From Leucoraja ocellata (taxonomy: Eukaryota), in assembly GCA_036785375.1 (NCBI GenBank), contig JAWMAR010002360.1, positions 62,001-126,000 on the forward strand: a stretch of 64,000 nt of DNA, in the 5' to 3' direction. How positions within the stretch are numbered: the stretch's first letter is position 1; each line of letters begins with the position of its first letter. Shown here one piece after another: positions 4,418 to 34,719 of this stretch. Below the pieces are notes generated by a model that saw nothing but the letters and a program-made list of their open reading frames with translations, was not told where the DNA came from and searched no databases. The position numbers were made by a program, and so were the translations under genes.

Positions 4418-4484
4418 TATTTTGAACTAATATTTTATATGCAGTATGTATGTCTCTAAGTTGTTCTAAGAAATCACATGTGAT

Positions 4485-8833: not shown

Positions 8834-8886
8834 TAGGAGAATGGAAATCTTGAAGCACAACCCTCCATCTATCAGATGAAAGTCGT

Positions 8887-9981: not shown

Positions 9982-10058
9982 TATTTTGAACTAATATTTT
10001 ATATGCAGTATGTATGTCTCTAAGTTGTTCTAAGAAATCACATGTGATTTGGTGGGAG

Positions 10059-10457: not shown

Positions 10458-11306
10458 GTGAGAACTCGACTGCTCTGCATGAGTAGCCGAGGAGGATGTC
10501 ACCAGACGGCAGCAGCCGAGAAGAGACGAACCATATCCATGCTGCGTGTGTATCTTCTACCACCGCCTACGCCGAAACACAAGCAGATCAAGCCCACAGG
10601 AAGGCCCAGGTGCCCCTAGTGTGAATATTGCTGTTAAGAAAACTCGTGTTTTGCACAAGAGACTGATATATTATCTACATTTTCATTTAATAAGTTGATG
10701 TTGTTATTTTCTACAACTAAAGGACTTTAAGTGTTTTGCACAAGAGACTGAGATATAATGTGCATTTCATTTATGTTGTTTACTTACCTTTCCTTATTGA
10801 AGACCATTGATACTCACACTGTGTTGATATTGAGAATTTGTTTATTGATGGTTACACTGTAAAAATCCTGTTAAAACATGCAGTACTCATAGTAATTTAA
10901 AGGTGCATTTCTGTTACTTAACAAGTGTTTAATGCATATGTAACTTACCTGTGGAAGAGTTGATAGCGTTATTTGTCTAATTATCACTCATAGTGATTTA
11001 AGTTGATAACACTATAAAAATTATTTATTAATTAGGTACTTACTCAACATAAGAAAATATTAGATTTAAACCAAACTAAAGTAAACCAAGTTTGAGCTTT
11101 CCCCTGAAAGTGACAGAGAAGATGATGAAGGTGATGACACGAAACAGCACTGCCCAGACGCACAACCACAAACGACCAAAGGCACTGGAGATGATATCCA
11201 CACTTCCTCACAAGAGCCACAAAGAGGCCAAAGAGTCCGCAAGCTAACGGAAAAGGGCCAAGAACTGCACGATGAGCAAGTAAGAAAGGTTGCACACCGT
11301 TTCAGT

Positions 11307-14300
11307 GTGAGCTACAAGAAGTGGAAGGCTGTCATTAAGGACGCCAAAGGGGCGCTGAGTGGTCAATGCTCAAACAACCTGCTGAATGAACACATCACCA
11401 AGGTAAGCAATGCTTCAAAGAATCTGAACGCTGTTTATGAAGAGCTGAGACACATCGACATTCTAGATCATGACACACGTCGCAGAGTAGACACCTGTGA
11501 AGCAGTAACAAAGAAGATAATCAAAACGGCAAGAGGTTATCTAAACTCGGGAAAGAGTGAATGTCAAGTGGATGAAGAACAAGGTGTTAAAGATACAGAA
11601 TCTGTGTTCAAGTCTGCAGCCTCAGATAAAATGAGCATCAAATCTCACCGCACCAAATCCTCCCAGTCCTCTTCTCAAGGCAACTCAACAATCACATCCA
11701 GACATTCAAGCCAGTCTCCTGCACACAGACTAGAAGCCGCTGCTGAAGTCGCAGCCAATGAAGCCACATTACAAGCGCTGCTAGAGCAAGAACAGGATAT
11801 TATAGAACTTGAAAGACTTGAGGCGGAAGATGCAGAGAGAAAAAGGGTGCTAGAGGCCAAACGCAGACAAATAGTGCGATTGGAGACAATAGGGAAGCTA
11901 AAGGCTGTCAAGGCACGACAGCAAGTATATAAGCAGAGTGAATGCTCAGACGGTGAAATAGGCGAGCTGCTCTATCAACACGTCTCTCTGAAGGAGAAGA
12001 AGGAAGTCAACCAGGAAAGTAACCTGTCGAAGCATCACCCTCCACCACAAGCTATGACACTTCCAAAACAAGAAGATAGCACAGCAGCTCTTGTGAGAGT
12101 GTTTGCAGAGTCCATCAATGCGAGTCGTCTTCCTATACCGGAACCGTCAACGTTCAACGGCGACCCACTCAGATTCAATGACTGGAAGGTTTCCTTTCAG
12201 ACATTAATTGACAAGAAAAACTTACCAGGTGAAGAAAGGATATATTATCTGCGAAGGTATGTGGGTGGAGCTGCCAAGAAGGCCATAGAGAGTTACTTTC
12301 TGCTAGGCGCAGAGTCAGCCTATCATGCAGCGTGGACCATCCTAGAAGAGAGATATGGCAATCCATTCCTCATCGCCAAAGCCTTCAGAGACAAGCTTGA
12401 TTCATGGCCCAAGATAAGCTCCAAAGGCAGTTTAGAACTTCAAGAACTCACTGACTTCCTTCGCAGCTGTGAGGCCGCCATGTCTCAGATTAGAGGTCTT
12501 GAGGTACTCAATGACTGCAACGAGAATCAGAAAATGCTTGTTAAACTTCCAGACTGGCTGACCTCAAGATGGAACAGGAAAGTCATAAAAGTGGAAGAAC
12601 AAAGTCACAAGTTCCCAAGCTTCAGCCAATTCATCAAGTTCCTCACACGTGAAGCAAAAATTGCTTGCAACCTGATAACGTCCCTCTACGCTCTAAAACT
12701 AAGGGAAGTTGAGAAGAGCAAGGCTTCAATGAACAAAGGTCCTGGAGCAAAGGTATTGGTAACAAACTCTGATGAGAAGGCAGTCGCCACAAGCTGTGTG
12801 TTCTGTGAGAGGGAAGGTCACAGTCTACACAAGTGTTATAAATTCATGGATGAGACGGTCTCTGAGCGAGTCAAGTTTGTTCAAGAAAGGAAGTTGTGCT
12901 TTGGCTGTCTGAAGTCTGGTCATCGCTCAAAGGAAAGTGAAAACAGAATGATCTGCAATACATGTGAAAGGAGACATCCAACTTGCCTCCACGACAATCG
13001 CACCAAGGAAGGAAGGATGTTAACAAGGCCTGATGAAGCAAGAGACCGTGAGCAGTCAACGGAAGGCAAGATGAACCGATCACAAGATAAGACAACAAGA
13101 ACCTCACCTGAGGCAACATCCAATAGAGTCATCCAGCATGTCAAAAACACTCATACGTCCACCATCATCCCAGTGTGGGTGTCAGCCACAAGTGAGCCTA
13201 ATCGTGAAGTTCTTGTGTATGCACTTCTGGATACACAGAGTGACACAACCTTTCTCCTAGAAGACAATGCAAAAGCTCTACACGTGAAGACCGAACCAGT
13301 TCAGCTAAAGCTCTCCACAATGGCTTCAAGAAACACAGTTGTGTCCTGTAGGAAACTGACTGGTCTACAAGTAAGAGGATTTTACTCAGACAAGATAATC
13401 CAGCTGCCAGTGACCTACACAAGAGAATTCATACCTGCAAACAGAGATCATATTCTCTCACCAGAGACTGCAATGGCATGGCCTCATCTCGAACACATCG
13501 CAGATGACATAGCTCCACATCAAAGCTGCGACGTCGGCTTACTAATTGGCTACAACTGTCCTCAAGCTCTCGTCCCAAGACAAGTGCTACCTGGTGAAGA
13601 AAATCAGCCCTTTGCACTGAAAACCGACTTGGGCTGGAGTGTAGTGGGTTATGGCAACCTATGTCTCGATTATGGAGATGCTATTGGAGTGAGTCACCAG
13701 GTTATCGTGAAGCAAGTGATATCAGTTATTCAGTCCTCTTCAAACCTCACAAGCGAAGTGCATTATGTCTGTAGAACACAGATCAAGGAAGTAGTCTCAC
13801 CTGCAGCTGTCATCATGGTGCTGGAAGCTGACTTTGTGGAAGGAATTTCAGAGGAAGGCAACATCTCTCAAGAAGAGCTCCGATTCCTGTCAAGGATGGA
13901 AAAAGGCATCAGGCGCAAGGAGGATGGTCACTATGAGATGCCACTGCCGTTTAAGAAAGAAATACCCAACTTACCAGACAACAAGATATGTGCCATCCAT
14001 CGTCTAAGGTGCCTAGAAAGGAAGCTGAAAAGAAATGAACAGTATTACAAAGACTACAAGACCTTCATGGATGAGACCATAACCCGTGGAGATGCAGAAA
14101 ATGTCTCACAAGAAGACGTTAGTAAAGCTCCAGCATGGTACATTCCCCACCATGGGGTGTATCATCCGCAAAAGCCTGGGAAAATTTGTGTCGTTTTTTA
14201 CTGTTCCACGAGGTATCAAGAGACAGCCTTGAATGATCATCTCCTGACGGGTCCAGAGTTGACGAACACCTTGTTGGGAGTCCTTTGTCATTTTCGTAAA

Positions 14301-14390
14301 GGTCCAGTGGCGATCATGTGTGACATAGAACGCATGTTTCATCAGTTCCATGTAAAGGCAGAAGATCAGGATTACCTACGTTTCCTATGA
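11307..14390 (+). pseudogene. BEL/Pao Gag-PR-RT(N-terminal), unit 3
   Basis: 1027-aa ORF with the same motifs and TGA TAG end. Confidence 0.92.
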
Positions 14391-14443
14391 TAGGAGAATG
14401 GAAATCTTGAAGCACAACCCTCCATCCATCAGATGAAAGTCGT

Positions 14444-15538
14444 TTGTTTGGTGCAGTTTCCTCTCCTGGCTGTGCCAACTTTGGACTCAAACACCTGGCC
14501 GCTGAAGGACGAGGACGCTTCAGTGAAGACACCATCCAATTCATCCAGAATAATATCTATGTGGATGATGGCTTGGCAAGTGTAGCATCTGAAAGGCAAG
14601 CAATCAAACTAGTGAAAGAAGCGAGAGAGCTATGTAGCACAGGCAAACTTCGGCTACATAAGTTCATCTCTAACAGCAAGGAAGTCCTAGCCACAATCCC
14701 TAATGATGATTGTGCTGAAGCTGCCAAGGACCTGGACATGGCACTGGGAGAACAACACATGGATAGAGCACTCGGTGTCCAGTGGTGTGTGGCTTCTGAC
14801 GAATTCCAGTTCAGGGTAATTGTCAAAGAAAATCCATTCACCCGAAGAGGAGTCTTGTCCACGGTTGCCTCAGTGTATGACCCGCTCGGATTTGTGGCAC
14901 CCTTCATCTTGGTAGGAAAGCAGATCTTGCAGCAGATGTGTCGTGACAAGCTCAGTTGGGATGACACCTTACCAGATGACCTACCCCTGTGGGAATCTTG
15001 GCACCAAGACCTGAAAAACCTGGCTGGTGTGAAGATCGGGAGATGCTACGCTCCACCAAGTTTCAATGTCCAGCACTATGAGCTCCACCATTTCTCCGAT
15101 GCCAGTGTGACGGGCTATGGAGTTTTCTCATATCTCAGAGCGGTCAGTACATCAGGTGAAGTCCACTGCACCTTAGTAATGGGAAAGTCAAGAGTCGCCC
15201 CTACTAAGGTGATGACCATACCAAGACTAGAGCTGTCAGCAGCAGTGGTAGCTGTCCGCATCAGTGACATGCTCAAGAAAGAGCTCGAAGTAGAATGCCG
15301 TCAAGAAATCTTCTGGACTGATTCAAAGGTCGTACTTGGATACATCAGTAATCAAGCCAGAAGATTCCACGTGTTCGTAGCAAACTGCGTGGAACGCATC
15401 AAGCGAAGCACAGAGTCTGCGCAATGGAGGCATGTAACTTCTGAGGAGAACCCAGCAGATCACGCCTCAAGAGGTCTCACAGCAGGACAACTTATAGCCT
15501 CCAAACCGGTTCACCTGGAGAGACCCATAGTTAGATAA
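14444..15538 (+). pseudogene. BEL/Pao RT C-terminus + RNase H, unit 3
   Basis: YVDD, FSDAS, NPAD motifs. Confidence 0.92.
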
Positions 15539-15615
15539 TATTTTGAACTAATATTTTATATGCAGTATGTATGTCTCTAAGTTGTTCTAAGAAATCACAT
15601 GTGATTTGGTGGGAG

Positions 15616-16014
15616 TGTAACTGCCCCACATCGGCAGTTAGTTAAATTCTGAACCTCACGGTTTTTGGTTCCTACCTGAAATAGTAGTGTTCCTAAGGGG
15701 GGAACTAATTGCCGACTTAGTTTCCGGGGGGCACGGTTGTTGGCACACACAGAAGCCATGACTAAGAAGAAACCAAGAAATACCTCTTAAGTAGTAAGCA
15801 GTGGACGAGGTATGTTGTTTATTTGCTTGGTTAGTGTGGTGTTGTGTTCTGTATGGACGTACATGCATGTATTTTGTAAACTGCATTTTTATTTTGTTTG
15901 TTTTTGTTTTTTGTTGCCTTGTTTTTGGCTCAGTTCTCACGGGTTGGTTGGAGCCGAAAATAAACCCCGTATTTAACCACGATCTCGGGCCTCGTGTACT
16001 ACGTGGGAGCTACA
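15616..16014 (+). repeat. LTR copy 3
   Basis: Identical by eye to the other forward LTRs. Confidence 0.93.
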
Positions 16015-16863
16015 GTGAGAACTCGACTGCTCTGCATGAGTAGCCGAGGAGGATGTCACCAGACGGCAGCAGCCGAGAAGAGACGAACCATATCCATGCT
16101 GCGTGTGTATCTTCTACCACCGCCTACGCCGAAACACAAGCAGATCAAGCCCACAGGAAGGCCCAGGTGCCCCTAGTGTGAATATTGCTGTTAAGAAAAC
16201 TCGTGTTTTGCACAAGAGACTGATATATTATCTACATTTTCATTTAATAAGTTGATGTTGTTATTTTCTACAACTAAAGGACTTTAAGTGTTTTGCACAA
16301 GAGACTGAGATATAATGTGCATTTCATTTATGTTGTTTACTTACCTTTCCTTATTGAAGACCATTGATACTCACACTGTGTTGATATTGAGAATTTGTTT
16401 ATTGATGGTTACACTGTAAAAATCCTGTTAAAACATGCAGTACTCATAGTAATTTAAAGGTGCATTTCTGTTACTTAACAAGTGTTTAATGCATATGTAA
16501 CTTACCTGTGGAAGAGTTGATAGCGTTATTTGTCTAATTATCACTCATAGTGATTTAAGTTGATAACACTATAAAAATTATTTATTAATTAGGTACTTAC
16601 TCAACATAAGAAAATATTAGATTTAAACCAAACTAAAGTAAACCAAGTTTGAGCTTTCCCCTGAAAGTGACAGAGAAGATGATGAAGGTGATGACACGAA
16701 ACAGCACTGCCCAGACGCACAACCACAAACGACCAAAGGCACTGGAGATGATATCCACACTTCCTCACAAGAGCCACAAAGAGGCCAAAGAGTCCGCAAG
16801 CTAACGGAAAAGGGCCAAGAACTGCACGATGAGCAAGTAAGAAAGGTTGCACACCGTTTCAGT

Positions 16864-19800
16864 GTGAGCTACAAGAAGTGGAAGGCTGTCATTAAGGACG
16901 CCAAAGGGGCGCTGAGTGGTCAATGCTCAAACAACCTGCTGAATGAACACATCACCAAGGTAAGCAATGCTTCAAAGAATCTGAACGCTGTTTATGAAGA
17001 GCTGAGACACATCGACATTCTAGATCATGACACACGTCGCAGAGTAGACACCTGTGAAGCAGTAACAAAGAAGATAATCAAAACGGCAAGAGGTTATCTA
17101 AACTCGGGAAAGAGTGAATGTCAAGTGGATGAAGAACAAGGTGTTAAAGATACAGAATCTGTGTTCAAGTCTGCAGCCTCAGATAAAATGAGCATCAAAT
17201 CTCACCGCACCAAATCCTCCCAGTCCTCTTCTCAAGGCAACTCAACAATCACATCCAGACATTCAAGCCAGTCTCCTGCACACAGACTAGAAGCCGCTGC
17301 TGAAGTCGCAGCCAATGAAGCCACATTACAAGCGCTGCTAGAGCAAGAACAGGATATTATAGAACTTGAAAGACTTGAGGCGGAAGATGCAGAGAGAAAA
17401 AGGGTGCTAGAGGCCAAACGCAGACAAATAGTGCGATTGGAGACAATATGGAAGCTAAAGGCTGTCAAGGCACGACAGCAAGTATATAAGCAGAGTGAAT
17501 GCTCAGACGATGAAATAGACGAGCTGCTCTATCAACACGTCTCTCTGAAGGAGAAGAAGGAAGTCAACCAGGAAAGTAACCTGTCGAAGCATCACCCTCC
17601 ACCACAAGCTATGACACTTCCAAAACAAGAAGATAGCACAGCAGCTCTTGTGAGAGTGTTTGCAGAGTCCATCAATGCGAGTCGTCTTCCTATACCGGAA
17701 CCGTCAACGTTCAACGGCGACCCACTCAGATTCAATGACTGGAAGGTTTCCTTTCAGACATTAATTGACAAGAAAAACTTACCAGGTGAAGAAAGGATAT
17801 ATTATCTGCGAAGGTATGTGGGTGGAGCTGCCAAGAAGGCCATAGAGAGTTACTTTCTGCTAGGCGCAGAGTCAGCCTATCATGCAGCGTGGACCATCCT
17901 AGAAGAGAGATATGGCAATCCATTCCTCATCGCCAAAGCCTTCAGAGACAAGCTTGATTCATGGCCCAAGATAAGCTCCAAAGGCAGTTTAGAACTTCAA
18001 GAACTCACTGACTTCCTTCGCAGCTGTGAGGCCGCCATGTCTCAGATTAGAGGTCTTGAGGTACTCAATGACTGCAACGAGAATCAGAAAATGCTTGTTA
18101 AACTTCCAGACTGGCTGACCTCAAGATGGAACAGGAAAGTCATAAAAGTGGAAGAACAAAGTCACAAGTTCCCAAGCTTCAGCCAATTCATCAAGTTCCT
18201 CACACGTGAAGCAAAAATTGCTTGCAACCCGATAACGTCCCTCTACGCTCTAAAACTAAGGGAAGTTGAGAAGAGCAAGGCTTCAATGAACAAAGGTCCT
18301 GGAGCAAAGGTATTGGTAACAAACTCTGATGAGAAGGCTGTCGCCACAAGCTGTGTGTTCTGTGAGAGGGAAGGTCACAGTCTACACAAGTGTTATAAAT
18401 TCATGGATGAGACGGTCTCTGAACGAGTCAAGTTTGTTCAAGAAAGGAAGTTGTGCTTTGGCTGTCTGAAGTCTGGTCATCGCTCAAAGGAAAGTGAAAA
18501 CAGAATGATCTGCAATACATGTGAAAGGAGACATCCAACTTGCCTCCACGACAATCGCACCAAGGAAGGAAGGATGTTAACAAGGCCCGATGAAGCAAGA
18601 GACCGTGAGCAGTCAACGGAAGGCAAGATGAACCGATCACAAGATAAGACAACAAGAACCTCACCTGAGGCAACATCCAATAGAGTCATCCAGCATGTCA
18701 AAGACACCCATACGTCCACCATCATCCCAGTGTGGGTGTCAGCCACAAGTGAGCCTAATCGTGAAGTTCTTGTGTATGCACTTCTGGATACACAGAGTGA
18801 CACAACCTTTCTCCTAGAAGACACTGCAAAAGCTCTACACATGAAGAACGAACCAGTTCAGCTAAAGCTCTCCACAATGACTTCAAGAAACACAGTTGTG
18901 TCCTGTAGGAAACTGACTGGTCTACAAGTAAGAGGATTTTACTCAGACAAGATAATCCAGCTGCCAGTGACCTACACAAGAGAATTCATACCTGCAAACA
19001 GAGATCATATTCTCTCACCAGAGACTGCAATGGCATGGCCTCATCTCGAACACATCGCAGATGACATAGCTCCACATCAAAGCTGCGACGTCGGCTTACT
19101 AATTGGCTACAACTGTCCTCAAGCTCTCGTCCCAAGACAAGTGCTAACTGGTGAAGAAAATCAGCCCTTTGCACTGAAAACCGACTTGGGCTGGAGTGTA
19201 GTGGGTTATGGCAACCTATGTCTCGATTATGGAGATGCTATTGGAGTGAGTCGCCAGGTTATCGTGAAGCAAGTGATATCAGTTATTCAGTCCTCTTCAA
19301 ACCTCACAAGCGAAGTGCATTATGTCTGTAGAACACAGATCAAGGAAGTAGTCTCACCTGCAGCTGTCATCAAGGTGCTGGAAGCTGACTTTGTGGAAGG
19401 AATTTCAGAGGAAGGCAACATCTCTCAAGAAGAGCTCCGATTCCTGTCAAGGATGGAAAAAGGCATCAGGCGCAAGGAGGATGGTCACTATGAGATGCCA
19501 CTGCCGTTTAAGAAAGAAAGACCCAACTTACCAGACAACAAGATATGTGCCATCCATTGTCCCAGGTGCCTAGAAAGGAAGCTGAAAAGAAATGACCAGT
19601 ATTACAAAGACTACAAGACCTTCATGGATGAGACCATAACCCGTGGAGATGCAGAAAATGTCTCACAAGAAGACGTTAGTAAAGCTCCAGCATGGTACAT
19701 TCCCCACCATGGGGTGTATCATCCGCAAAAGCCTGGGAAAATTTGTGTCGTTTTTTACTGTTCCACGAGGTATCAAGAGACAGCCTTGAATGATCATCTC

Positions 19801-19947
19801 CTGACGGGTCCAGAGTTGACGAACACCTTGTTGGGAGTCCTTTGTCATTTTCGTAAAGGTCCAGCGGCGATCATGTGTGACATAGAACGCATGTTTCATC
19901 AGTTCCATGTAAAGGCAGAAGATCAGGATTACCTACGTTTCCTATGA
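16864..19947 (+). pseudogene. BEL/Pao Gag-PR-RT(N-terminal), unit 4 (recombinant type)
   Basis: 1027-aa ORF; 5' variants as in units 1/3, later variants as in unit 2. Confidence 0.92.
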
Positions 19948-20000
19948 TAGGAGAATGGAAATCTTGAAGCACAACCCTCCATCTATCAGATGAAAGTCGT

Positions 20001-21095
20001 TTGTTTGGTGCAGTTTCCTCTCCTGGCTGTGCCAACTTTGGACTCAAACACCTGGCCGCTGAAGGACGAGGACGCTTCAGTGAAGACACCATCCAATTCA
20101 TCCAGAATAATATCTATGTGGATGATGGCTTGGCAAGTGTAGCATCTGAAAGGCAAGCAATCAAACTAGTGAAAGAAGCGAGAGAGCTATGTAGCACAGG
20201 CAAACTTCGGCTACATAAGTTCATCTCTAACAGCAAGGAAGTCCTAGCCACCATCCCTAATGAGGATTGTGCTGAAGCTGCCAAGGACCTGGACATGGCA
20301 CTGGGAGAACAACACATGGATAGAGCACTCGGTGTCCAGTGGTGTGTGGCTTCTGACGAATTCCAGTTCAGGGTAATTGTCAAAGAAAATCCATTCACCC
20401 GAAGAGGAGTCTTGTCCACGGTTGCCTCAGTGTATGACCCGCTCGGATTTGTGGCACCCTTCATCTTGGTAGGAAAGCAGATCTTGCAGCAGATGTGTCG
20501 TGACAAGCTCAGTTGGGATGACACCTTACCAGATGACCTACCCCTGTGGGAATCTTGGCACCAAGACCTGAAAAACCTGGCTGGTGTGAAGATCGGGAGA
20601 TGCTACGCTCCACCAAGTTTCAATGTCCAGCACTATGAGCTCCACCATTTCTCCGATGCCAGTGTGACGGGCTATGGAGTTTTCTCATATCTCAGAGCGG
20701 TCAGTACATCAGGTGAAGTCCACTGCACCTTAGTAATGGGAAAGTCAAGAGTCTCCCCTACTAAGGTGATGACCATACCAAGACTAGAGCTGTCAGCAGC
20801 AGTGGTAGCTGTTCGCATCAGTGACATGCTCAAGAAAGAGCTCGAAGTAGAATGCTGTCAAGAAATCTTCTGGACTGATTCAAAGGTCGTACTTGGATAC
20901 ATCAGTAATCAAGCCAGAAGATTCCACGTGTTCGTAGCAAACTGCGTGGAACGCATCAAGCGAAGCACAGAGTCTGCGCAATGGAGGCATGTAACTTCTG
21001 AGGAGAACCCAGCAGATCACGCCTCAAGAGGTCTCACAGCAGGACAACTTATAGCCTCCAAACCGGTTCACCTGGAGAGACCCATAGTTAGATAA
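20001..21095 (+). pseudogene. BEL/Pao RT C-terminus + RNase H, unit 4
   Basis: YVDD, FSDAS, NPAD motifs. Confidence 0.92.
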
Positions 21096-21172
21096 TATTT
21101 TGAACTAATATTTTATATGCAGTATGTATGTCTCTAAGTTGTTCTAAGAAATCACATGTGATTTGGTGGGAG

Positions 21173-21571
21173 TGTAACTGCCCCACATCGGCAGTTAGTT
21201 AAATTCTGAACCTCACGGTTTTTGGTTCCTACCTGAAATAGTAGTGTTCCTAAGGGGGGAACTAATTGCCGACTTAGTTTCCGGGGGGCACGGTTGTTGG
21301 CACACACAGAAGCCATGACTAAGAAGAAACCAAGAAATACCTCTTAAGTAGTAAGCAGTGGACGAGGTATGTTGTTTATTTGCTTGGTTAGTGTGGTGTT
21401 GTGTTCTGTATGGACGTACATGCATGTATTTTGTAAACTGCATTTTTATTTTGTTTGTTTTTGTTTTTTGTTGCCTTGTTTTTGGCTCAGTTCTCACGGG
21501 TTGGTTGGAGCCGAAAATAAACCCCGTATTTAACCACGATCTCGGGCCTCGTGTACTACGTGGGAGCTACA
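21173..21571 (+). repeat. Terminal 3' LTR followed by putative TSD TGGTT (21572-21576)
   Basis: Similarity to the other units stops exactly at ...GCTACA. Confidence 0.93.
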
Positions 21572-21576
21572 TGGTT

Positions 21577-23510
21577 CATAGAAACATAGAAACATAGAAA
21601 TTAGGTGCAGGCATAGGCCATTCGGCCCGTCGAGCCTGCACCGCCATTCAATATGATCATCCAACTCAGTATCCCGTACCTGCCTTCTCTCCATACCCTC
21701 TGATCCCCTTGGCCACAAGGGCCACATCTAACTCCCTCTTAAATATAGCCAATGAACTGGCCTCAACTACCCTCTGTGGCAGAGAGTTCCAGAGATTCAC
21801 CACTCTCTGTGTGAAAAATGTTCTTCTCATCTCGGTTTTAAAGGATTTCCCCCTTATCCTTAAGCTGTGACCCCTTGTCCTGGACTTCCCCAACATCGGA
21901 AACAATCTTCCTGCATCTAGCCTGTCCAACCCCTTAAGAATTTTGTAAGTTTCTATAAGATCCCCTCTCAATCTCCTAAACTCTAGAGAGTATAAACCAA
22001 GTCTATCCAGTCTTTCTTCATAAGACAGTCCTGACATCCCAGGAATCAGTCTGGTGAACCTTCTCTGCACTCCCTCTATGGCAATAATATCCTTCCTCAG
22101 ATTTGGAGACCAAAACTGCACGCAATACTCCAGGTGTGGTCTCACCAAGACCCTATACAACTGCAGTAGAACCTCCCTGCTCCTATACTCAAATCCTCTT
22201 GCTATGAAGGCCAACATGCCATTCGCTTTCTTTACTGCCTGCTGCACCTGCATGCCTACCTTCAATGACTGGTGTACCATGACACCCAGGTCTCGCTGCA
22301 TCTCCCCGTTTCCCAATCGGCCACCGTTTAGATAATAATCTGCTTTCCCGTTTTTGCCACCAAAATGGATAACCTCACATTTATCCACATTATACTGCAT
22401 CTGCCAAACATTTGCCCACTCACCCAGCCTATCCAAGTCACCTGGCAGTCTCCTAGCATCCTCCTCACAGCTAACACTGCCCCCCAGCTTTGTGTCATCC
22501 GCAAACTTGGAGATATTGCCTTCAATTCCCTCATCCAGATCATTAATATATATTGTAAATAGCTGGGGTCCCAGTACTGAGCCTTGGGGTACCCCACTAG
22601 TCACTGCCTGCCATTGTGAAAAGGACCCGTTTACTCCTACTCTTTGCTTCCTGTTTGCCAGCCAGTTCTCTATCCACATCAATACTGAACCCCCAATGCC
22701 TTGTGCTTTAAGTTTGTATACTAATCTCTTATGTGGGACCTTGTCGAAAGCCTTCTGGAAGTCCAGATACACCACATCCACTGGTTCTCCCCTATCCACG
22801 CTACTAGTTACATCCTCGAAAAATTCTATAAGATTCGTCAGACATGATTTACCTTTCGTAAATCCATGCTGACTTTGTCCAATGATTTCACCAATTTCCA
22901 AATGTGCTGCTATCCCATCTTTAATAACTGACTCTAGCAGTTTCCCCACTACCGATGTTAGACTAACTGGTCTGTAATTCCCCATTTTCTCTCTCCCTCC
23001 CTTCTTAAAAAGTGGGGTTACGTTTGCTACCCGCCAATCTTCAGGAACTACTCCAGAATCTAAAGAGTTTTGAAAGATTATTACTAATGCATCCACTATT
23101 TCTGGAGCTACTTCCTTAAGTACTCTGGGATGCAGCCTATCTGGCCCTGGGGATTTATCGACCTTTAATCCATTCAATTTACCCAACACCACTTTCCGGC
23201 TAACCTGGATTTCACTCAATTCCTCCAAATCGTTTGACCCGCGGTCCCCTGCTATTTCCGGCAAATTATTTCTGTCTTCCTTAGTGAAGACGGAACCAAA
23301 GTAGTTATTCAATTGGTCCGCCATATCCTTGTTCCCCATGATCAACTCACCTGTTTCTGACTGCAAGGGACCTACATTTGTTTTAACTAATCTCTTTCTT
23401 TTCACATATCTATAAAAATTTTGCAGTCAGTTTTTATGTTCCCTGCCAGTTTTCTTTCATAATCTATTTTTCCTTTCCTAATTAAGCCCTTTGTCCTCCT
23501 CTGCTGGGCT
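21577..23510 (-). mobile_element. CR1 LINE family A, 5'-truncated, open RT ORF 21666-23405, (CATAGAAA)n tail
   Basis: YRPVSLTS, QHGF, YLDFQKAFDKV, GVPQGSVLGP, FADD; 8-bp microsatellite tail at 21577-21600. Confidence 0.92.
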
Positions 23511-25677
23511 TTCCCTACCATTTACCATGTACGTCCTATTTTGATTTGTCCTGCCAAGGTGTAGCACCTCACATTTATCAGCATTAAACTCCATCTGCCA
23601 TCTTTCAGCCCATTTTTCCAAATGGCCTAAATCACTCTGTAGACTTTGGAAATCCTCTTCATTATCCACAACACCCCCTATCTTGGTATCATCTGCATAC
23701 TTACTAATCCAATTTACCACACCTTCATCCAGATCATTGATGTACATGACAAACAACAAAGGACCCAACACAGATCCCTGAGGCACCCCACTAGTCACCT
23801 GCCTCCAACCCGATAAACAGCCATCCACCATTACCCTCTGGCTTCTCCCATTCAGCCACTGTTGAATCCATCTTGCTATTCCTGCATTTATACCCAACAG
23901 TTGAACCTTCTTAACCAACCTTCCATGAGGAACCTTGTCAAAGGCCTTACTAAAGTCCATATAGACAACATACACTGCTTTACCCTCGTCAATTTCCCTA
24001 GTAACCTCTTCAAAAAATTCAAGAAGATTAGTCAAACATGACCTTCCAGGCACAAATCCATGTTGACTGTTGCTAATCAGACCCTGTTTATCTAGATGCT
24101 TATATATATTGTCTCTAAGTATCTTTTCCATTAATTTGCCCACCACTGAAGTCAAACTAACAGGTCTATAATTGCTACGTTTACTCTTAGAACCCTTTTT
24201 AAACAATGGAACAACATGCGCAGTACGCCAATCCTCGGGGACTATTCCCGTTTCTAATGACATTTGAAATATTTCTGTCATAGCCCCGGCTATTTCTACA
24301 CTAACTTCCCTCAATGTCCTAGGGAATATCCTGTCAGGACCTGGAGACTTATCCACTTTTATATTTTTCAAAAGTGTCAGTACTTCATTTACTTTGAAAC
24401 TCATAGTATCCATAGCTACTCTACTAGTTTCCCTTACCTCACATAATTCAATATCCTTCTCCTTGGTGAATACCGAAGAAAAAAAATTGTTCAATATCTC
24501 CCCCATCTCTTTTGGCTCTGCAGATAGCTGTCCACTCTGTCTCTCCAATGGACCAATTTTATCCCTCCTTATCCTTTTGCTATTAATATAGCTATAGAAA
24601 CCCTTTGGATTGACTTTCACCTTACTTGCCAAAGCAACCTCATATCTTCTTTTAGCTTTTCTAATTTCTTTCTTAAGATTCTTTTTACATTCCTTATACT
24701 CCTCAAGCACCTCGTTTACTTCATGCTGCCTATAATTATTGTAGATCTCCCTCTTTTTCCGAACAAGATGTCCAATTTCCCTTGAAAACCAGGGCTCTTT
24801 CCAATTTTTACTGTTTCCTTTCAACCGAACAGGAACATAAAGATTCTGTACTCTTAAAATGTCCCCTTTAAATGTCCTCCATTTCTCTTCTACATCTTTC
24901 CCATAAAACAAAATGTCCCAGTTCATTCCTTTTAAATCATCTCGCATCGCATCAAAGTTAGCCTTTCTCCAATCAAAAATCTCAACCCTAGGTCCAGTTC
25001 TGACCCTCTCCATAGTTATATTGAAACTAATGGTATTGTGATCACTGGACCCGAAGTGCTCCCCAACGCATACCTCCGCCACCTGTCCAGTCTCATTTCC
25101 TAACAGGAGGTCCAGCACTGCCCCTCCTCTAGTAGGTACCTCTATGTATTGCTGCAAAAAACTATCCTGCACACATTTTACAAACTCCAACCCATCCAGC
25201 CCATTTACAGAATGTGTATCCCAGTCTATGTGTGGAAAGTTGAAATCTCCCACAATCACTACCTTGTGCTTACTACTAATCTCTGCTATCTCCTTACATA
25301 TTTGCTCTTCCAATTCTCGTTCCCCGTTTGGCGGTCTATAATACACCCCTATAAGTGTTGCTACACCTTTCCCACTTCTCAATTCCACCCAAATAGCCTC
25401 CCTAGATGAGCCCTCCAATCTATCCTGCCAAAGCACTGCTGTAATATCCCTGACTAGCAATGCAACACCTCCACCTCTTGCCCCTCCAATTCTATCACAC
25501 CTGAAGCAACGAAATCCTGGAATATTTAGTTTCCAATCACAGCCCTCCTGCAACCACGTTTCACTGATCGCCACAACATCATACTTCCAGGTGTCTATCC
25601 AGACTCTAAGCTCATCCTCCTTTCTTACAATGCTCCTAGCATTAAAATATGCACATTTAAGAAAACCCCCGTCTCTT
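23511..25677 (-). mobile_element. CR1 LINE family B ORF2 (APE endonuclease + RT), lacking both ends
   Basis: AISETWL, YYRPP, GDFN, SDH, YADD in ORF 23478-25574; near-identical to parts of 53060-53943. Confidence 0.92.
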
Positions 25678-26883
25678 GTTCTTGGCCCTTTTCCGTTAGC
25701 CTGCGGACTCTTTGACCTCTTTGTGGCTTTTGTGAGGAAGTGTGGATATCATCTCCACTGCCTTTGGTCGTTTGTGGTTGTGGGTCTGGGCAGTGCTGTT
25801 TCATGTCATCACCTTCATCATCTTCTCTGTCACTTTCAGGGGAAAGCTCAAACTTGGTTTACTTTAGTTTGGTTTAAATCTAATATTTTCTTATGTTGAG
25901 TAAGTACCTAATTAATAAATAATTTTTATAGTGTTATCAACTTAAATCACTATGAGTGATAATTAGACAAATAATCTATCAACTCTTCCACAGGTAAGTT
26001 ACATATGCATTAAACACTTGTTAAGTAACAGAAATGCACCTTTAAATTACTATGAGTACTGCATGTTTTAACAGGATTTTTACAGTGTAACCATCAATAA
26101 ACAAATTCTCAATATCAACACAGTGTGAGTATCAATGGTCTTCAATAAGGAAAGGTAAGTAAACAACATAAATGAAATGCACATTATATTTCAGTCTCTT
26201 GTGCAAAACACTTAAAGTCCGTTAGTTGTAGAAAATAACAACATCAACTTATTAAATGAAAATGTAGATAATATATCAGTCTCTTGTGCAAAACACGAGT
26301 TTTCTTAACAGCAATATTCACACTAGGGGCACCTGGGCCTTCCTGTGGGCTTGATCTGCTTGTGTTTCGGCGTAGGCGGTGGTAGAAGATACACACGCAG
26401 CATGGATATGGTTCGTCTCTTCTCGGCTGCTGCCGTCTGGTGACGTCCTCCTCGGCTACTCATTCAGAGCAGTCGAGTTCTCACTGTAGCTCCCACGTAG
26501 TACACGAGGCCCGAGGTCGTGGTTAAATACGGGGTTTATTTTCGGCTCCAACCAACCCGTGAGAACTGAGCCAAAAACAAGGCAACAAAAAACAAAAACA
26601 AACAAAATAAAAATGCAGTTTACAAAATACATGCATGTACGTCCATACAGAACACAACACCACACTAACCAAGCAAATAAACAACATACCTCGTCCACTG
26701 CTTACTACTTAAGAGGTATTTCTTGGTTTCTTCTTAGTCATGGCTTCTGTGTGTGCCAACAACCGTGCCCCCCGGAAACTAAGTCGGCAATTAGTTCCCC
26801 CCTTAGGAACACTACTATTTCAGGTAGGAACCAAAAACCGTGAGGTTCAGAATTTAACTAACTGCCGATGTGGGGCAGTTACA
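25678..26883 (-). mobile_element. Inverted 5' end of the BEL/Pao element: LTR (26485-26883), leader and first 42 gag codons
   Basis: Reverse complement of 4495-5701; flanked by AACCA (reverse complement TGGTT). Confidence 0.95.
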
Positions 26884-27150
26884 AACCAAATGGAGAACTC
26901 GTGAACAAAGTGCAAGAATTCATGAACCAAGTGGTGAACTCATGAACCAAGCGCGATAATTCATGAACCAAACGGAGAACTACTGAACCAAGTCGGTCAT
27001 TAATGAACCGAATGGAGAATTTGTGAACCAAGTGGGAAAATAATTAAACAATCCAAGTAATTAATGAACATAATTGTGATCTCATGACCGAAGTGGGAGA
27101 ATTCATTAACTTATCAGCTAACTAAACAAACGGGAGAATTCATGAAGTAG
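26884..27150. repeat. Degenerate 20-21 bp minisatellite with TGAACCAA core
   Basis: TGAACCAA or variants recur every 20-21 bp. Confidence 0.8.
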
Positions 27151-27581
27151 CCAAGTAACAGACATTCGGTGCGCTGTCAGATCTGGGAGAATACATTAAC
27201 CAAGGGGTTTAGGGTTGAGGTCAGGGGTAAGGGGGGGTTAATTTTAGGCTTTGGTGTATGATTAATATTTGGCTTAACATTGCAGACCTCTACGCAGGCC
27301 TGCAGTGCAGTGCATCACCACACGGTGGGAGTGTTGACCACTAGATGGGCGGGTCTGCAGTGCAGTGGATTACCACACGGTGGCAGTGTTGACTCAGATG
27401 CCAACGTTTGTAGAAGCCCTGAAACCAGTTAAGATTTGGGATGAAAGTCAAGGATTTGCAGATGTTGGTTGGAATTACAGCGGGTCGGGCAGCATCTCTG
27501 TAGAACATGGATAGGTGACATTTCACCACAGGAACCTTCACATTTCACTAAAATAAATACATTAAGACTAACTAAAATATA

Positions 27582-27840
27582 GGTAGCACAGTTGTAGAGT
27601 TGATGTCTGGCAGTAGCAGTGACCTGGGTTTGACCCTGATCTCTGGTGCTGTCTGCACAGAATTTGTATGCTCTATCTGTGACCACAGAGATTTCCTCTG
27701 GATGTTTGCTTTCCTCCCACATACCAAAGATGTGCAGGTTTGTAAGTTAGTCGGCTTCTGTAAATTGTCCCTAATGTAGGTTAGGTATGGGTGATTGCTG
27801 GTCAGCATGGACTAAGTGGGCTATCTCTCCAAACTAGAAA
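27582..27840 (+). mobile_element. tRNA-derived V-SINE (HE1-like), decayed
   Basis: A/B-box-like head (GGTAGCACAGTTGTAGAG...GGGTTTGACCCTG) and V-domain-like TTTCCTCCCACATACCAAAGATGTGCAGG. Confidence 0.7.
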
Positions 27841-27950
27841 CCACTGAATGGGCTGGATTAATACATTGTAATTGGCTTAAAATTAAGGCCATGAATATTA
27901 CACTATAACTTTAGCACTAATTTAACCAGGGAATATAACTAGGTCTAAAC

Positions 27951-28691
27951 AGTGCTGGAGGTACTCAGTGGGTCAGGCACCATCTGTCTGACACAAAGTG
28001 GATGGACAGACATTTTGGGTCAGGAACCTTCTTCAGACTGATGGAATAGGTCAGAGAAAGTGGGGAGAGAGAAGGGAGCAGGACAAAGCCTGGTGAGTGA
28101 CAGGTGGATACAGGTGAGGGGGTGGTTGGCAGATGGATGGAGTAGTGACAGAGGCTGGAGGTGAAAAGGACATAAAGGTTGTCAGATAAGGAGATGAGAG
28201 CATTGAAATGCTAAGCCAGAGAGATGGATATGGGTGCAAGGGGAAGGAGGAAAATATAAGATTCAGGAATGAGAGATGAGCGTACAGAAGGGTAGGAGCA
28301 GTGACTGAGTTGTTGGGGAAGTGTGGACACCAGGGTGGGGGTGCAGGGTAAGATGGGAGTTTCCATCAGTATACTCATCTCCCTCTCAAAGTGCCACATT
28401 TCCCTTTTACCCCCTTCAGCCCCACCCTGTCCCAATACACCTGTATATCTCCCTCAAGCTTTACATTTCACAGCTCCTCGCCTTCTGAAACATTCTTACC
28501 TCTCCATCTCCAGCCGTTGTCACTTACTCCACAATCAACCCCTCACCTTATCCACCCATCACTTGCTAAGCATTGCCTCACCTTACCTCACTTTCCCACC
28601 TTTCCCTCACTCCAGTCTGAAGGATTACAAACAGATACATCTATCCATTTGCTCCACAGATGCTGCCTGGCCCACCAAGTTCCTCCAGCTC
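27951..28691. mobile_element. Fold-back element made of two inverted Penelope-like termini
   Basis: GTGCTGGAGGTACTCAGTGGGTCAGGCACCATCTG at left, approximate reverse complement at 28657-28691; purine-rich then pyrimidine-rich arms. Confidence 0.6.
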
Positions 28692-28699
28692 TCAAAATT

Positions 28700-29372
28700 C
28701 ACTTTTAAAACAGCCAAAGAACATTTTAAATATTTGGGAATTGAAATCAATAGAAAATATCAAGCTATGTATAACGCTAATTATAGTCCCTTACTTAAGA
28801 AATTAAATACTTTAATTAAATTCTGGAAAACGCTTCCTATGTCTTTAATAGGTCGAATAAATGCTATAAAATTATCTTTATACCACAGATTCTATACCTA
28901 TTTCAATCAATCCCTATATATCTACCAAAAAAGTTTTTTTTTAAACTGGACTCAGACATTATAACATTTTATATGGGACTATAAATCCCACAGAATACTA
29001 ATAACTCACTTGAGCAAAACTAAAGAATTGTGTGGTTTAACACTTCCTAAATGTATGTACTATTACTGGGCAGTAAATGTCAAAAATATGATCCACCTGC
29101 TGGACAATTCTGCCCAGCAGGTGGATTGGATTATAATGGAGTGAGAGGACTGCTCCCCTTGTAATATTGGAGCGACTCTCCTCTCACCAATCAACTTGAG
29201 TAACACTAATTATAATAAAAATCCAATTATACACAGTACAATTAGAACCTGGAAACAAATAAAACATAACCTAACATTAAGAAATCTATCTCTGTTATCT
29301 CCAATAGTTAATAACCCACCGTTTAAACCCTCTATTATAGATAAATCATTTACACAATGGGACAGAATAGGA
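28700..29372 (+). mobile_element. L1/Tx1-type LINE ORF2 fragment (post-RT region), decayed
   Basis: FKYLGI...W..LPMSLIGRINAIK, then a GL.LP...YYWA-like segment. Confidence 0.75.
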
Positions 29373-29373
29373 A

Positions 29374-32300
29374 TTTTACTTCGGAGTCACGTGAGTGACC
29401 ACGTGAAGATGGCCGTCCAGGCGCATGCGGGTCACCTTGTCAGACGCATTGCGCTGCCACCGCGGTAGGAGGTGTGGAACCTCTAAGCGGTGAGTGAAGG
29501 AAAACATGGACGTAAGTCTTTTCTACTTCTACTTTCAGGCTGCTTTTCTTCGGAGACTGCGTGCAGAGACACGGGCAAGTCTTATGTATGGAGAAAGGTG
29601 GGAGGAAGAATAGTGAGCGCATCGCAGTAAGCACTCAATAAGACAACGTGTCTGAGAGTAGCGGGCGCCTGACTAAAAAGTCGATTGTAAAGAAATTACT
29701 ATTTTACACGGGAGGGGAAAAGTCCCGTTGAAACTTCCATAGGGAGCAAGGCCATAAAGAAATAACAGACCTGGAAGACTATGAGGAGTCTGAACTATAG
29801 AATTTATAAACTGGAATTCCTCAAGGGTAAAACTAACTCCAGAAGGAGTATAAAAGACATGGGCTTAAAGAGCAACCGCATGGAACACCCAGAAGAGGTT
29901 CTGGGAAACGTTGGCCCAGATTTGAGCCAGCGACCAAAATGCCTGATGATAAAGATGAATATATGGGCTGACCTGACACGGAGGCAGCACCAGAAATGTC
30001 TGAAAGACAATACAGGCGTTGGTCTACAGGAGACACAGAATATGGAGCAGCACCCAAAAGTGGGCTGTCAATATACAGCTCAAATGAAGAGCTTGATGTA
30101 GCCAAAGAGGGACAAAAAAGCATCGCCCTATATTAGAGCCATCGCATGAAATACCTGATGATGAATATCCAAGTGAAACCCATTATGAGGAGGAATATCC
30201 AGAATACTCTGATAATGAACCAGTTGAGGGCCAGAACCCAAAGCAAAAAAGAAAAATGCCAGGGCTGGCCCAAAAGGTATATAGTCCCAGACACAAGGGA
30301 CAACCTCTTCCAGAGGAAATAGCAGAGAGTATAAATTACCTGCTTTCCCATCAATCACAAGATGCAACAATGGATGAAGTTATGAACAAATATGAAATCC
30401 CGCAGACCTGTGCTCTGCTTGGAGTGCCAGCTGTTAACAAAGAAGTGTGGAAGTATATGGGCATTGTAGTAAGAGCTCAAGAAATGAGATTACAGCGGGA
30501 ATTAAGATTGATTGGGTCAAATATTACGGCATTTGTCAAAGATCTGGAAGAAGGAAATGTGACAATGGCACAACAGGATGTAATGGGAATGATGTGTAAT
30601 GCACATTTTGAAATAAACTGTATTTGTAAAACTGCGTTAAGACCTAACATACATCCTAAGTTTGCAGGGCTCCGTAAACCATCTAATATACAATTGCCAA
30701 ATGTACTCTTTGGAGAAGAGCTTGCCAAATAACTAAAGGTTCTCAATGAAGAATCAAAAACCATCGGGATGATGAAACCACCGATGTTTGCAGCACAGCT
30801 AGAAGGCAATATCCATACCGAAGGGGAACTGGTGATTGAACAAGTCGCTCTGACTCACGTACAAGATATGGACATACAACCCCAGGACGTGGAGGTCATG
30901 GTATTTCCACAAGGGGCAATGTACAAAAAGTCACACCAGTAAACTCTGAGGTAGGTGGCTCTGGTTCTGAAAGAAACATATCAGATGTATCCTACTTACA
31001 AGTTGGGGGTAGGTTACAATTATTTTTAAAAGAATGGAAACTAATAACATCTGATGCATATATACTGTGCAGAATTATGGGGTTTAGAATTTAATTTTAC
31101 CAGAATTAAAATCCACCTACACAACATATTCCAAAAATAATATATTCCTGCTCTAAAGAAGAGATGATAAGAATTAAAATAAAAATTGAGATTTGGAGTA
31201 AAAAAGGGGTAATAGAGAAAACAACTTATCAAAACCATCACTTTGTATCTAGTATTTTCTCTAGAACAAAAAAGGATTGGGGGTACTAGAATCATTTTGG
31301 ACCTCACAAGTCTTAACTCTTTTGTGCAGTATAAACATTTCAAATGGAGACTTGTACTAATGCTTTGCAATTAATTTCAACAGAATGCTATATGGCAAGC
31401 ATTGATCTCCAAGATGCACATAATTCTGTTGTGGTGCATGTGCAACATCACAGATATTTGAAATGTGTCTGGATGTCTCAAATGTGGCAGTTTAAAGCCC
31501 CAGATTGTTTACAAAACTGTTGAAGTCAATTTTAGCATTGTTAAGAACTCAAGGCCATTTGATAATGGCTTATTTGGATGACATTTTAATTGTGGGAGAT
31601 ACTGAAGCCATGACAGCAGCTTCTGTTTTAAAAAGTAAACCTCACATTTCAAAGAATGGGATTTGTCATTCATTCAGAGATATCCAGACTGACACCTAAC
31701 AAAATAATTGATTACTTGGGGTTCACTATTGATTCAGAACACAAGACAGTGAGCTTACCCAAGGACAAAAAGTTGCAAGTGATTAAGGGTTGTAAGGAGT
31801 TAATTGCAGGCAAACAACCATCAATCAGTCAAGTAGCAAATCTAATTCGCAAGTTAATTGCTTCATTTCCAGCTGTTCAGTTTGGACCACTGCATTATCA
31901 GACAGCTGCAGTGCGCAAAGATATCAGTATTGGGAAGACATGCTGGACGTTACGATAGGCCTATACAACTAACTAACACAGCAATTGAGGATATAAAATG
32001 GTGGATTAAAAATATGGATTACTCTTACAGGAAAATTCTGATTGAATCACACACTACCATTTTATAAACAGATGCAAGTGCACTGGAATGGGGAGCTGCG
32101 GATGCCATCTCAAGCTGTGGAGGTAGATGGAATGCAGAGGAAGAACCTTTGCTCGAGACATATGGCATAAATTATCTTTAATTACTAAGTGTATTGGTTC
32201 ACGAAGCCCGTCGATTTAAAAGTACTGATGTTCGAGGTGCACAATTTGCGGGTGAATTTGTTGATGTGAATCGGTGTACTGGTTCACGATGCCCGTCGAT

Positions 32301-32550
32301 TTGCTACGGGTCCAGTCATTGCTACACTGGATAGAATGATCATATCTGTGGGCTATAATAACATGTTTTGTTATGATTAGTCAAGCAGAGTAGACAGGGA
32401 CACAGACCAAACTAGATGTTGCATATCTCATGGACCTTGGGTTGCGTGTGATCATGCATCTACACAAGTATGTCAAGGTCCCTAAGAGCATCATAGACTC
32501 TGACTAGCAATATTGTTAGTTACATAAACCTCGTTAGAAGGAATCACTAC
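29374..32550 (+). mobile_element. DIRS-like retrotransposon 1, decayed: terminus, gag, RT, RNase H and a tyrosine-recombinase remnant (~32305-32545)
   Basis: TTTTAC terminus; gag VPAVN..VW; VGGRL..F...W; AYLDDILI; YLGF; TDAS..WG; LVKQSR...AY remnant. Confidence 0.8.
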
Positions 32551-32614
32551 GAACGTTCAGCAGTACGCCAATCCTCGGGGACTATTCCCGTAGCTCCAGA
32601 TGGACTATTCCCGT

Positions 32615-34718
32615 ACGGTTTGGGGCATGCTGCATGGGTGGCAGTGAGCCAGCAAATTCTATTTGGAACCCATCTATACTGTGCAGTCTGAACAAGTCAG
32701 ATGTTACCCACCACCACTCATGCAAAAAGAAACGTAATCTCCCACCAACATGCGTTAGACCCACAACCCAAATGTTACATAGTGAACCAGACCCACCTAC
32801 CTCCGTGTTAGTTGGATTCTGGATCGTTATTTCCTTCCCCGATGTTTGGGGATTTGAGGTGCTGGTATGCGCCATCTGCGCATCTTGGCTGTCGGCCGGT
32901 TCGGGCCATGTCCTAATAAAGAGTTCCTGCCGGTTCTTTCAGTCCTCGAGCTGAAGGTGGTTCCCACAGACAGTCTAGTGCTGGTCGAGGCATACGGGTG
33001 CTGGCGTTGAAACGATGACTGTCTGTTTGCTGGTGGAGTCCAAAGTAGCCCCACAGCCTTCGACTCGTCGTCCTGATCCTTCACCTGTCTGGATAGGTGT
33101 TCTCCAAACAGTAAATAGGGCGGCTGCACATTACTGGACTTGTACAACCCTGCAAACTTGGGGTTGAGAACAGGACGAATGGCATTCTTGCAAAAGCAAT
33201 TCATTTCAAATTGTGCATTACACAACAATGCCATTGCGTCCCGTTGAGCCTCAGATAATGCACAGCTCTCCACCGACCTGGCCACAGCTCTCCACCGACC
33301 TGGCCACAGCTGTCCACCGACCTGGCCACTGCTGTCCACCGACCTGGCCACTGCTGTCCACCGACCTGGCCACAGCTGTCCACCGACCTGGCCACAGCTG
33401 TCCACCGACCTGGCCACAGCTGTCCACCGACCTGGCCACTGCTGTCCACCGACCTGTCCACCGACCTGGCCACAGCTGTCCACAGACCTGGCCACTGCTG
33501 TCCACAGACCTGGCCACTGCTGTCCACCGACCTGGCCACAGCTGTCCACCGACCTGGCCACTGCTGTCCACCGACCTGGCCACCGACCTGGCCACTGCTG
33601 TCCACCGACCTGTCCACCGACCTGGCCACTGCTGTCCACCGACCTGGCCACTGCTGTCCACCGACCTGGCCACAGCTGTCCACCGACCTGGCCACAGCTC
33701 TCCACCGACCTGGCCACTGCTGGCCACCGACCTGGCCACTGCTGGCCACCGACCTGGCCACTGCTGTCCACCGACCTGGCCACTGCTGTCCACCCCGATG
33801 CCAGCAGATTCAGGATTCTCTGTAATTTGACCTCTTGGGCCAATGTAGCTCCAGATGGAACTGTTCACCGCCGGTACCTTGAGGGAGGCGCAGTTGCTGG
33901 GCGCATGGTACCTCATGGCTGTCTCCATCATCACCTGCTCTTGAAGCTGGTGGCAAGCAAGGTAATTAATGCTGGCCGCCAGCTCTTCATCCAGCGGCTC
34001 CCCAACCAGCTACGGCATTGCAAACTTGGAGACAATGGTTGGCACATGCACATCTCGCGGGTCCCTTATCGAACGTTCTCCCCGCATCTCAGTGCAATGC
34101 GAGTCCGCCCAGGACTGGTGGTCTACACTCCCATCCTTGGATGGGGAGACATAATGCAGCCCTGCACCAGGCGCTGCTGTGGGCCCCCGAGACCCGCTGT
34201 GATATGAATCCCGACCGAGGAGCATATCATGTTGGAGTATCTTCTCCATAAGATGCTCCACTCGGGAAAGGCGTCCGTCAACGCTCCCCGTAGGAGGAGG
34301 CGAACCCTCCCGGCCGGACTCATCCGAGTCAACCGGCCTGTTGGACTTGTCCTTCCCGACCCACAGGGTAGCCACAGTGCTCTCCATGGGCACCGAGCCC
34401 GAAGTCGCTGGCTGCGCTGTCAGCGACTGCGATGGTGAAACAGAATGCCGCCCGCTGACCGCACTCCCGCGGTCTTCCGAAGCGGTTCTCCTTGCGAGAC
34501 TTCACCCTCGCCTTATCCATGATGTTCTTGCTGTAACAAGACAGAAGACAAAACGACCACTGACTAAGTTCAAGAACTTACCTGGAGGTCTTTTGAAACT
34601 TACCGCTGGTGAAGCGACGCGCTTGCCAGCCAGTCAGAGCGTCATGCGTTAGACAGAATGACGCGCATGCGGGCTGACGGGGTCTTCACGTATTCATTCA
34701 CGTGACCCCAAAGTAAAA
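32615..34718 (-). mobile_element. DIRS-like retrotransposon 2 (different subfamily), 5' part: terminus, gag, start of RT
   Basis: Related TTTTAC...CACGTG terminus on minus; LKVPAVNSSIW, CNAQFEMN, VGGRLRFFLHEW. Confidence 0.8.
33261..33793. repeat. 22-bp minisatellite (CCACCGACCTGGCCACTGCTGT) within DIRS gag
   Basis: About two dozen units with interspersed 12-bp partial units. Confidence 0.95.
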
Positions 34719-34719
34719 T

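Follow-up and report, generated by a model that had tools for sequence, protein, structure and literature searches.

Background

The long terminal repeats (LTRs) of BEL/Pao retrotransposons start with TG and end with CA, as set out in the available part of PMC8220671, and tandem arrays in which adjacent units share an LTR, arising by LTR recombination and unequal exchange, are well described in the accessible part of 10.1101/158386. Insertion of long interspersed elements (LINEs) usually yields a 5′-truncated copy that is joined directly or through microhomology, according to the available sections of PMC4245944. Inversions bridged by L1 make up 27 of 152 retrotransposon-bridged rearrangements in human tumours (10.1101/2024.08.27.596794, partial text) and are also recorded in cell models (10.1101/2024.12.14.628481, partial text), and inversions linked to other transposon types occur in an alga (PMC9977147, partial text). 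Here we describe a stretch of 64,000 nucleotides from the cartilaginous fish Leucoraja ocellata (contig JAWMAR010002360.1, positions 62,001 to 126,000; the whole stretch is referred to as the window), in which a tandem BEL/Pao array is followed by two LINEs and by an inverted BEL/Pao LTR.

A head-to-tail array with a unit length of 5.56 kb takes up the left third of the window. Unit 0 is partial, units 1, 2 and 3 begin with the LTRs at 4495, 10059 and 15616, and two sequence types, alpha and beta, alternate along the array. The LTR that closes the array and the inverted LTR downstream are very probably the two ends of one insertion and share a common origin, judging from their sequences and flanks. 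An inversion that separated these ends is the likeliest class of explanation and a probable one.

Target-site duplication and flanking minisatellite

The terminal 3′ LTR of the array (21173-21571, forward strand; 399 bp, TG...CA) is followed directly by TGGTT (21572-21576, forward strand). A second TGGTT, which reads AACCA on the forward strand, is found at 26884-26888 on the reverse strand, directly beside the inverted 5′ LTR (26485-26883, reverse strand) and preceding it in its own orientation. This pair had been pointed out in an earlier note made from the letters of the stretch, and it was recovered at both ends; the further claim that the LTRs differ by one base also holds, as the inverted LTR differs from each forward LTR only at 26516 (1 of 399 bases, 0.25%). 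TGGTT occurs at 132 of ~125,000 five-base positions counted on both strands (0.00105), so that a match by chance would be expected about once in 1,000. The two copies form a target-site duplication (TSD) within the 4-6 bp range of BEL/Pao, an assignment valid only if both LTRs belong to one insertion.

The second copy is part of a degenerate 20-bp minisatellite (26884-27035, reverse strand; detected by TRF) that would have been the original target. Read towards the LTR, six of its units end in TGGTT or CGGTT, with CA next in all six and CAT in four, and the seventh unit is cut by the LTR exactly after TGGTT. CAT also follows the forward TSD.

Inward of the inverted LTR are an inverted leader and the start of gag (25678-26484, reverse strand), of beta type with private variants. 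As the earlier note had proposed, this piece carries variants of the array units. Over 25678-26883 it is nearest to the unit at 4495, with 8 differing positions compared with 13 each for those at 10059 and 15616, and it has 5 alleles in common with the unit at 4495. The alleles that it shares with this unit at 25715, 25729 and 25803 are absent from public contigs in all four runs compared. As alpha and beta units alternate, the next one to the left should be of beta type, which is also the type of the inverted piece. Private differences number 7 in 1,207 bases of the inverted piece and 2 in 3,621 bases of the same span in three forward units (Fisher p = 0.0013, with sites treated as independent), and private variants are present at both edges of the array, as at the edges of homogenised arrays. 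The assignment of the two LTRs to one insertion is made because the TSD matches, the minisatellite is cut, and derived alleles are held in common with one array unit; on this point the earlier note is well supported. A fold-back of a visible unit was also considered and rejected, as the inverted piece differs from each at 8 or more positions and has alleles of its own. The description of the insertion as recent stands only loosely, as the unit types are ~0.7-0.8% apart, which is above the 0.25% LTR difference.

The public data come from 24 listed sequencing runs, of which the best shares 0.54 of sampled words with the window. Contigs of 4 of the 24 were compared with 21572-29300, a stretch that holds no forward gag and so could not show the reciprocal junction. 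Contigs of the four runs share flank differences from the window, and the runs probably represent other species or paralogues, not this genome. None of the 32 contig pieces listed from them bridges any of the four junctions; with 409,830 further pieces and 1,817 joints outside this listing, that is no evidence either way. Across 26925-28810, an apparently unique flank, contig depths are similar to those of the BEL/Pao internal region in all four runs, a weak hint of multiple copies in related genomes.

The CR1 copies and their junctions

Two young LINEs separate the forward TSD from the inverted piece. LINEs of this kind in the window have Exo_endo_phos and RVT_1 matches in open reading frame (ORF) 2 and short tandem-repeat 3′ tails, and we take them to belong to the CR1 clade. 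A match to Lipase_GDSL_2 at 51996-52874 in one copy, below the Pfam cut-off, would correspond to an ORF1 of esterase type.

CR1-A (21577-23510, reverse strand; Pfam RVT_1) has its 5′ end at 23510 and a 3′ tail of 8-bp repeats (21577-21600) that touches the TSD. Its reverse transcriptase (RT) ORF spans 21666-23426 with a one-base deletion near 23413-23420, and 17 private changes were counted in 1,458 sites, 3 of them non-synonymous. CR1-B (23511-25677, reverse strand; Pfam) belongs to a second family. It has an open ORF2 predicting endonuclease and RT and lacks ORF1 as well as the 3′ end and tail. A sister copy, which differs from CR1-B at 13 of 883 sites, extends upstream into ORF1 and downstream for ~730 nt to the tail, and the 3′ loss of ~730 nt in CR1-B was measured against this copy at 53944-54669. 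In all four runs, public contigs of the CR1-B family extend beyond 23511, and they also extend beyond 25682 in both of the runs listed at that position.

At 25677/25678 the 5′ end of CR1-B meets gag, as the earlier note had reported. The joint is strictly blunt, with 25678 fitting only gag and 25677 only CR1-B, and the near-microhomology described there corresponds to an imperfect match of 4 of 5 bases adjacent to it. An ORF at 23478-25748 crosses this position out of frame with gag, and an in-frame gag-CR1 fusion was rejected. The second junction, 23510/23511, joins the 5′ end of CR1-A to the cut 3′ end of CR1-B and is the favoured rearrangement breakpoint; among the CR1-A copies of the window none is longer than this one. 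No minisatellite remnant is present at the 5′ end of CR1-A; the other half of the minisatellite would be expected beyond this end, and the cut CR1-B is found instead.

These two truncations differ in what they imply. Five of six other young CR1 copies (21577, 39288, 49225, 55001, 53059 and 59949) are 5′-truncated, and the 3′ end is present in each of the 11 other CR1-type copies that were traced in the window. As 5′ truncation is the norm and loss of the 3′ tail is not, the missing 3′ end of CR1-B needs a cause. On the best reading, 25677/25678 results from insertion of an ordinary truncated CR1 into gag, and the junction made by the rearrangement is 23510/23511. The former has the truncated 5′ end and the little or imperfect homology of the 5′-truncated LINE insertions in the available part of PMC4245944. 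Unlike ordinary insertions of this type, CR1-B is missing its 3′ end, and the insertion is not closed on its other side in the window.

Proposed order of events

From the observed anatomy, TSD, family identities and truncations we infer a history in which CR1-B was inserted in gag and an inversion then broke inside CR1-B, at 23511, and beside the 3′ TSD. This particular history is a serious candidate, at somewhat less than an even chance. An integrase-less BEL/Pao element would have entered the 20-bp minisatellite, probably by means of the integrase of a helper, duplicating TGGTT. LTR recombination and unequal crossing-over would then have expanded the insertion into a head-to-tail array with shared LTRs. 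A 5′-truncated CR1-B may have landed in gag of the first unit, making 25677/25678 an ordinary LINE 5′ joint, before a later inversion broke in CR1-B at 23511 and just past the 3′ TSD of the array, which would have reversed the array with respect to its 5′ LTR and the flank beside it. In the most economical version, insertion of CR1-A would itself have caused the inversion: its tail would have been primed beside the TSD, and its 5′ end, rather than meeting the other half of the minisatellite, would have been joined to the broken CR1-B. The break at 23510/23511 is favoured because one event accounts for both junctions.

The geometry of CR1-A, with its tail at one break and its inverted 5′ end at the other, distant one, fits a LINE-bridged inversion and resembles the L1-bridged cases in the available texts cited above; a later inversion or deletion would give the same sequence. 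Unlike those cases, which come from tumours and cell lines, this one would involve a CR1-type LINE in an assembled animal genome, and its mechanism is presumptive, as the reciprocal junction lies out of view. That the CR1-A insertion itself flipped the array, amounting to a germ-line CR1-mediated inversion in a cartilaginous fish, 29 kb downstream of an immunoglobulin M (IgM)-like gene, is possible but doubtful; in such a case the TSD of the split LTR element would mark the two original ends. One narrow full-text literature search found no publication on CR1-mediated inversion, which does not establish its absence from print.

Several observations weigh against this history. The array extends leftward past the window, which therefore does not show the reciprocal junction. 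In the 21 kb of visible units no CR1 insertion is present, and CR1-A, CR1-B and the BEL insertion have overlapping ages from which no order follows. A 149-bp CR1 fragment at 46373-46521, which was not counted as a copy, lacks both ends, and CR1 copies in the window often have internal deletions (two in 53059-54669 and further ones near 36514 and 48191). The CAT after the forward TSD is not independent evidence, as three of four CR1-A tails end on the same three bases, and the excess of private differences in the inverted piece would also fit a separate paralogous copy.

Alternative explanations

In the earlier note both CR1 copies lay beyond the 3′ TSD of the array, the breaks fell in gag and just upstream of CR1-B ORF2, and the array was flipped together with the two CR1s, making 25677/25678 the inversion junction. 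An inversion separating the ends is retained from that proposal; a break at 25677/25678 is not the most economical choice, as it leaves the 3′ loss of CR1-B to a separate deletion. The model agrees with the TSD, with the orientations of all pieces and with the 4/5 match at 25677/25678, and it dispenses with a CR1 insertion into a young array. Internal CR1 deletions being frequent in the window, 23510/23511 could be another, and the extra deletion is therefore not very costly. The loss of the 730 nt, the tail and the other half of the minisatellite nevertheless calls for a second independent event, CR1-B must have retained its ORF1 side as only 1 of 6 other young copies has, and the imperfect homology at 25677/25678 is equally typical of a LINE 5′ end in the part of PMC4245944 available. 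We consider this model unlikely. An inverted duplication followed by deletion, in which the segment carrying a single insertion was duplicated in opposite orientation and the middle lost, would place the LTRs on two paralogous copies with a TSD shared by descent and nothing flipped. The 7 private differences in the inverted piece, 6 of which are absent from contigs of at least 3 of 4 runs, speak for it; private variants are also expected at an array edge excluded from unequal crossing-over. Depths of 338-587 for flank pieces in one run (X2), compared with 19-23 for some diverged pieces, give a weak hint of multiple copies, depth not being copy number. IgM-like genes in cartilaginous fish occur as many duplicated clusters, and one such gene is 29 kb away. 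Two further events are required, however, and the alpha/beta alternation already predicts a beta 5′ end for the next unit; duplication of a multi-copy segment is a serious rival, but somewhat less likely again than the model of the earlier note.

Both junctions would be accounted for in one event by a compound retrotransposition, in which cDNA from CR1-A RNA switched to CR1-B RNA and formed a bridge from a nick adjoining the TSD to a break in gag. That break would then be the true inversion point, and the CR1s a bridge that was not itself flipped. The two CR1 pieces are young, have the same orientation and possess a single tail, and chimeric bridges of two L1s are described in the accessible portion of 10.1101/2024.08.27.596794. 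The switch would have to take place at non-homologous positions between families that are ~65-75% alike, and none of the 11 other copies was identified as a chimera of this kind, making this highly improbable. Hardly more probable is an assembly error, or two independent insertions with flanks that match by chance. The region is dense in repeats and no contig among those listed bridges a junction, and, as TGGTT recurs each 20 bp in the minisatellite, this 5-mer is nothing out of the ordinary in the flank of the inverted copy. At the forward LTR, a match by chance would still have a probability of ~0.001. As for misassembly, the junctions join unrelated sequences that share no overlap, unlike repeat misjoins, and the inverted piece has its own alleles and is not a fold-back of a visible unit. 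The public runs (at most 0.54 of sampled words) differ from the window at shared flank sites and are probably not from this genome. The models predict different outcomes for the sequence at the left end of the array.

Composition of the BEL/Pao array

Pfam matches to DUF1759 (E 1e-11) and Peptidase_A17 (E 1e-47) are the BEL/Pao signature, and the order gag-protease-RT-RNase H is collinear with full-length relatives. Unit 0 (1-4494, forward strand; delimited by self-BLAST, the variant table and pairwise counts) starts within gag, is of alpha type, and is unbroken across the position equivalent to the 25678 break, which would put the broken unit at least 5.4 kb to the left of position 1, or farther away by multiples of ~5.56 kb. 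Unit 1 (4495-10058, forward strand) comprises the LTR at 4495-4893 and an internal region of beta type, with an additional frameshift in gag near 6750. Unit 2 (10059-15615, forward strand; Pfam, translation and tblastn) has its LTR at 10059-10457 and is of alpha type. It contains ORFs at 11085-14390 (DUF1759) and 14411-15538 (Peptidase_A17), its RT is disrupted at 14388-14393, where two in-frame stops are found, and near 14442, where the frame changes, and the unit stops after the RNase H region without an integrase. Unit 3 (15616-21172, forward strand; LTR 15616-16014) is a mosaic that is alpha-like in its 5′ part and beta-like in the middle, with private variants close to the 3′ end.

All visible units share the RT break. 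The best relative, P0001 (76% identity), extends 559 C-terminal residues further, and these residues, which include Integrase_H2C2 and DUF5641, have no match in the window. Six of six scanned relatives match DUF5641 and Integrase_H2C2, the latter above the Pfam cut-off in 2 of 6, and the integrase part has no match in the window for any of the four relatives tested. Among the 142 relatives reaching the end of the query, 80 extend at least 300 residues beyond it. The elements have the TG...CA LTRs, 5-bp TSD and gene order of BEL/Pao. Unlike autonomous members, in which an unbroken pol continues after RNase H into integrase, the visible units end after the RNase H region and all carry the RT break. 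On their predicted coding content they are defective, non-autonomous BEL/Pao derivatives. As the original insertion made a TSD, an integrase supplied by a helper would have been needed.

The four forward LTRs (4495, 10059, 15616 and 21173; 399 bp each) are identical, and with the inverted one five 399-bp copies start with TG and end with CA. The same element flanks both sides of the LTRs at 4495, 10059 and 15616, with no TSD between units. In its head-to-tail units, single LTR at each joint, lack of TSDs between units and apparent growth by unequal exchange, the array is like known shared-LTR tandems. It differs from them in that its units are mosaics of two types with identical LTRs, and in the displacement and inversion of its 5′ end.

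Over ~4,494 bases, 9 substitutions separate unit 0 from unit 2 and 20 separate unit 1 from unit 3, and the remaining pairs are 28-38 substitutions apart (33 for units 0 and 1, 38 for units 1 and 2), giving two sequence types ~0.7-0.8% apart in the order alpha-beta-alpha-mixed. The units are mosaic, as 22 informative sites yield 57 incompatible pairs; assembly could account for part of this. Most differences between types change the amino acid (non-synonymous, 14 of 19 and 9 of 10), which is the expectation without selection. No site varies among the LTRs, compared with 4.9 predicted by the internal rate (P = 0.007), so that the LTR clock underestimates age. Within 1-21571, the unit 3′ end, LTR and leader are near-invariant, with 3 variable sites in 1,306 bases compared with 44 in 3,587 (Fisher p = 0.0007). 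The array resembles a two-unit higher-order repeat under homogenisation.

Surrounding sequence

The rest of the window is dense with CR1-type LINEs. The near full-length copy of the CR1-B family at 51450-54669, with an esterase-like ORF1, has two internal deletions in ORF2 (~145 and 1,140 nt). At 44098-44920 a CR1 3′ tail has expanded to ~800 bp of 8-bp repeats, broken by a run of 156 N. Two decayed elements with gag-like and RT-like remnants and similar outer ends face each other at 29378-34719, presumably DIRS-like, and the second carries a 22-bp tandem repeat at 33261-33794. Between them, at 32560-32615, a 32-bp exact copy of CR1-B (24220-24251) is followed by a 15-bp match to 33845-33859 and a short local duplication. 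This segment looks like a templated repair junction, which would be a second rearrangement in the region.

An immunoglobulin heavy-chain gene on the minus strand is represented at the right end of the window by constant-region, secretory and membrane exons. The exons of this IgM-like gene (55550-55680, 59060-59420, 61200-61530 and ~63050-63340) are a membrane exon and three exons for constant domains, of which the last has a secretory tail. IgM constant regions are among the best solved relatives of the last domain. CR1 copies are present in its introns and downstream of it.

Significance

Each component described here belongs to a known kind, be it the defective BEL/Pao derivative, the tandem with shared LTRs, the truncated CR1s or the local inversion or duplication. 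Within the window no gene is disrupted, and the case is one of ordinary turnover in a repeat region. It offers a clean worked example of young repeats reshuffling one another. It also carries a caution, as the 5′ joint of a LINE fragment is a normal product of insertion and on its own no breakpoint, and the missing 3′ tail is the informative anomaly. If the version in which CR1-A itself caused the inversion is true, LINE-bridged inversions would extend from human L1 in tumours and cell lines to CR1 in an inherited genome, beside an immunoglobulin locus.

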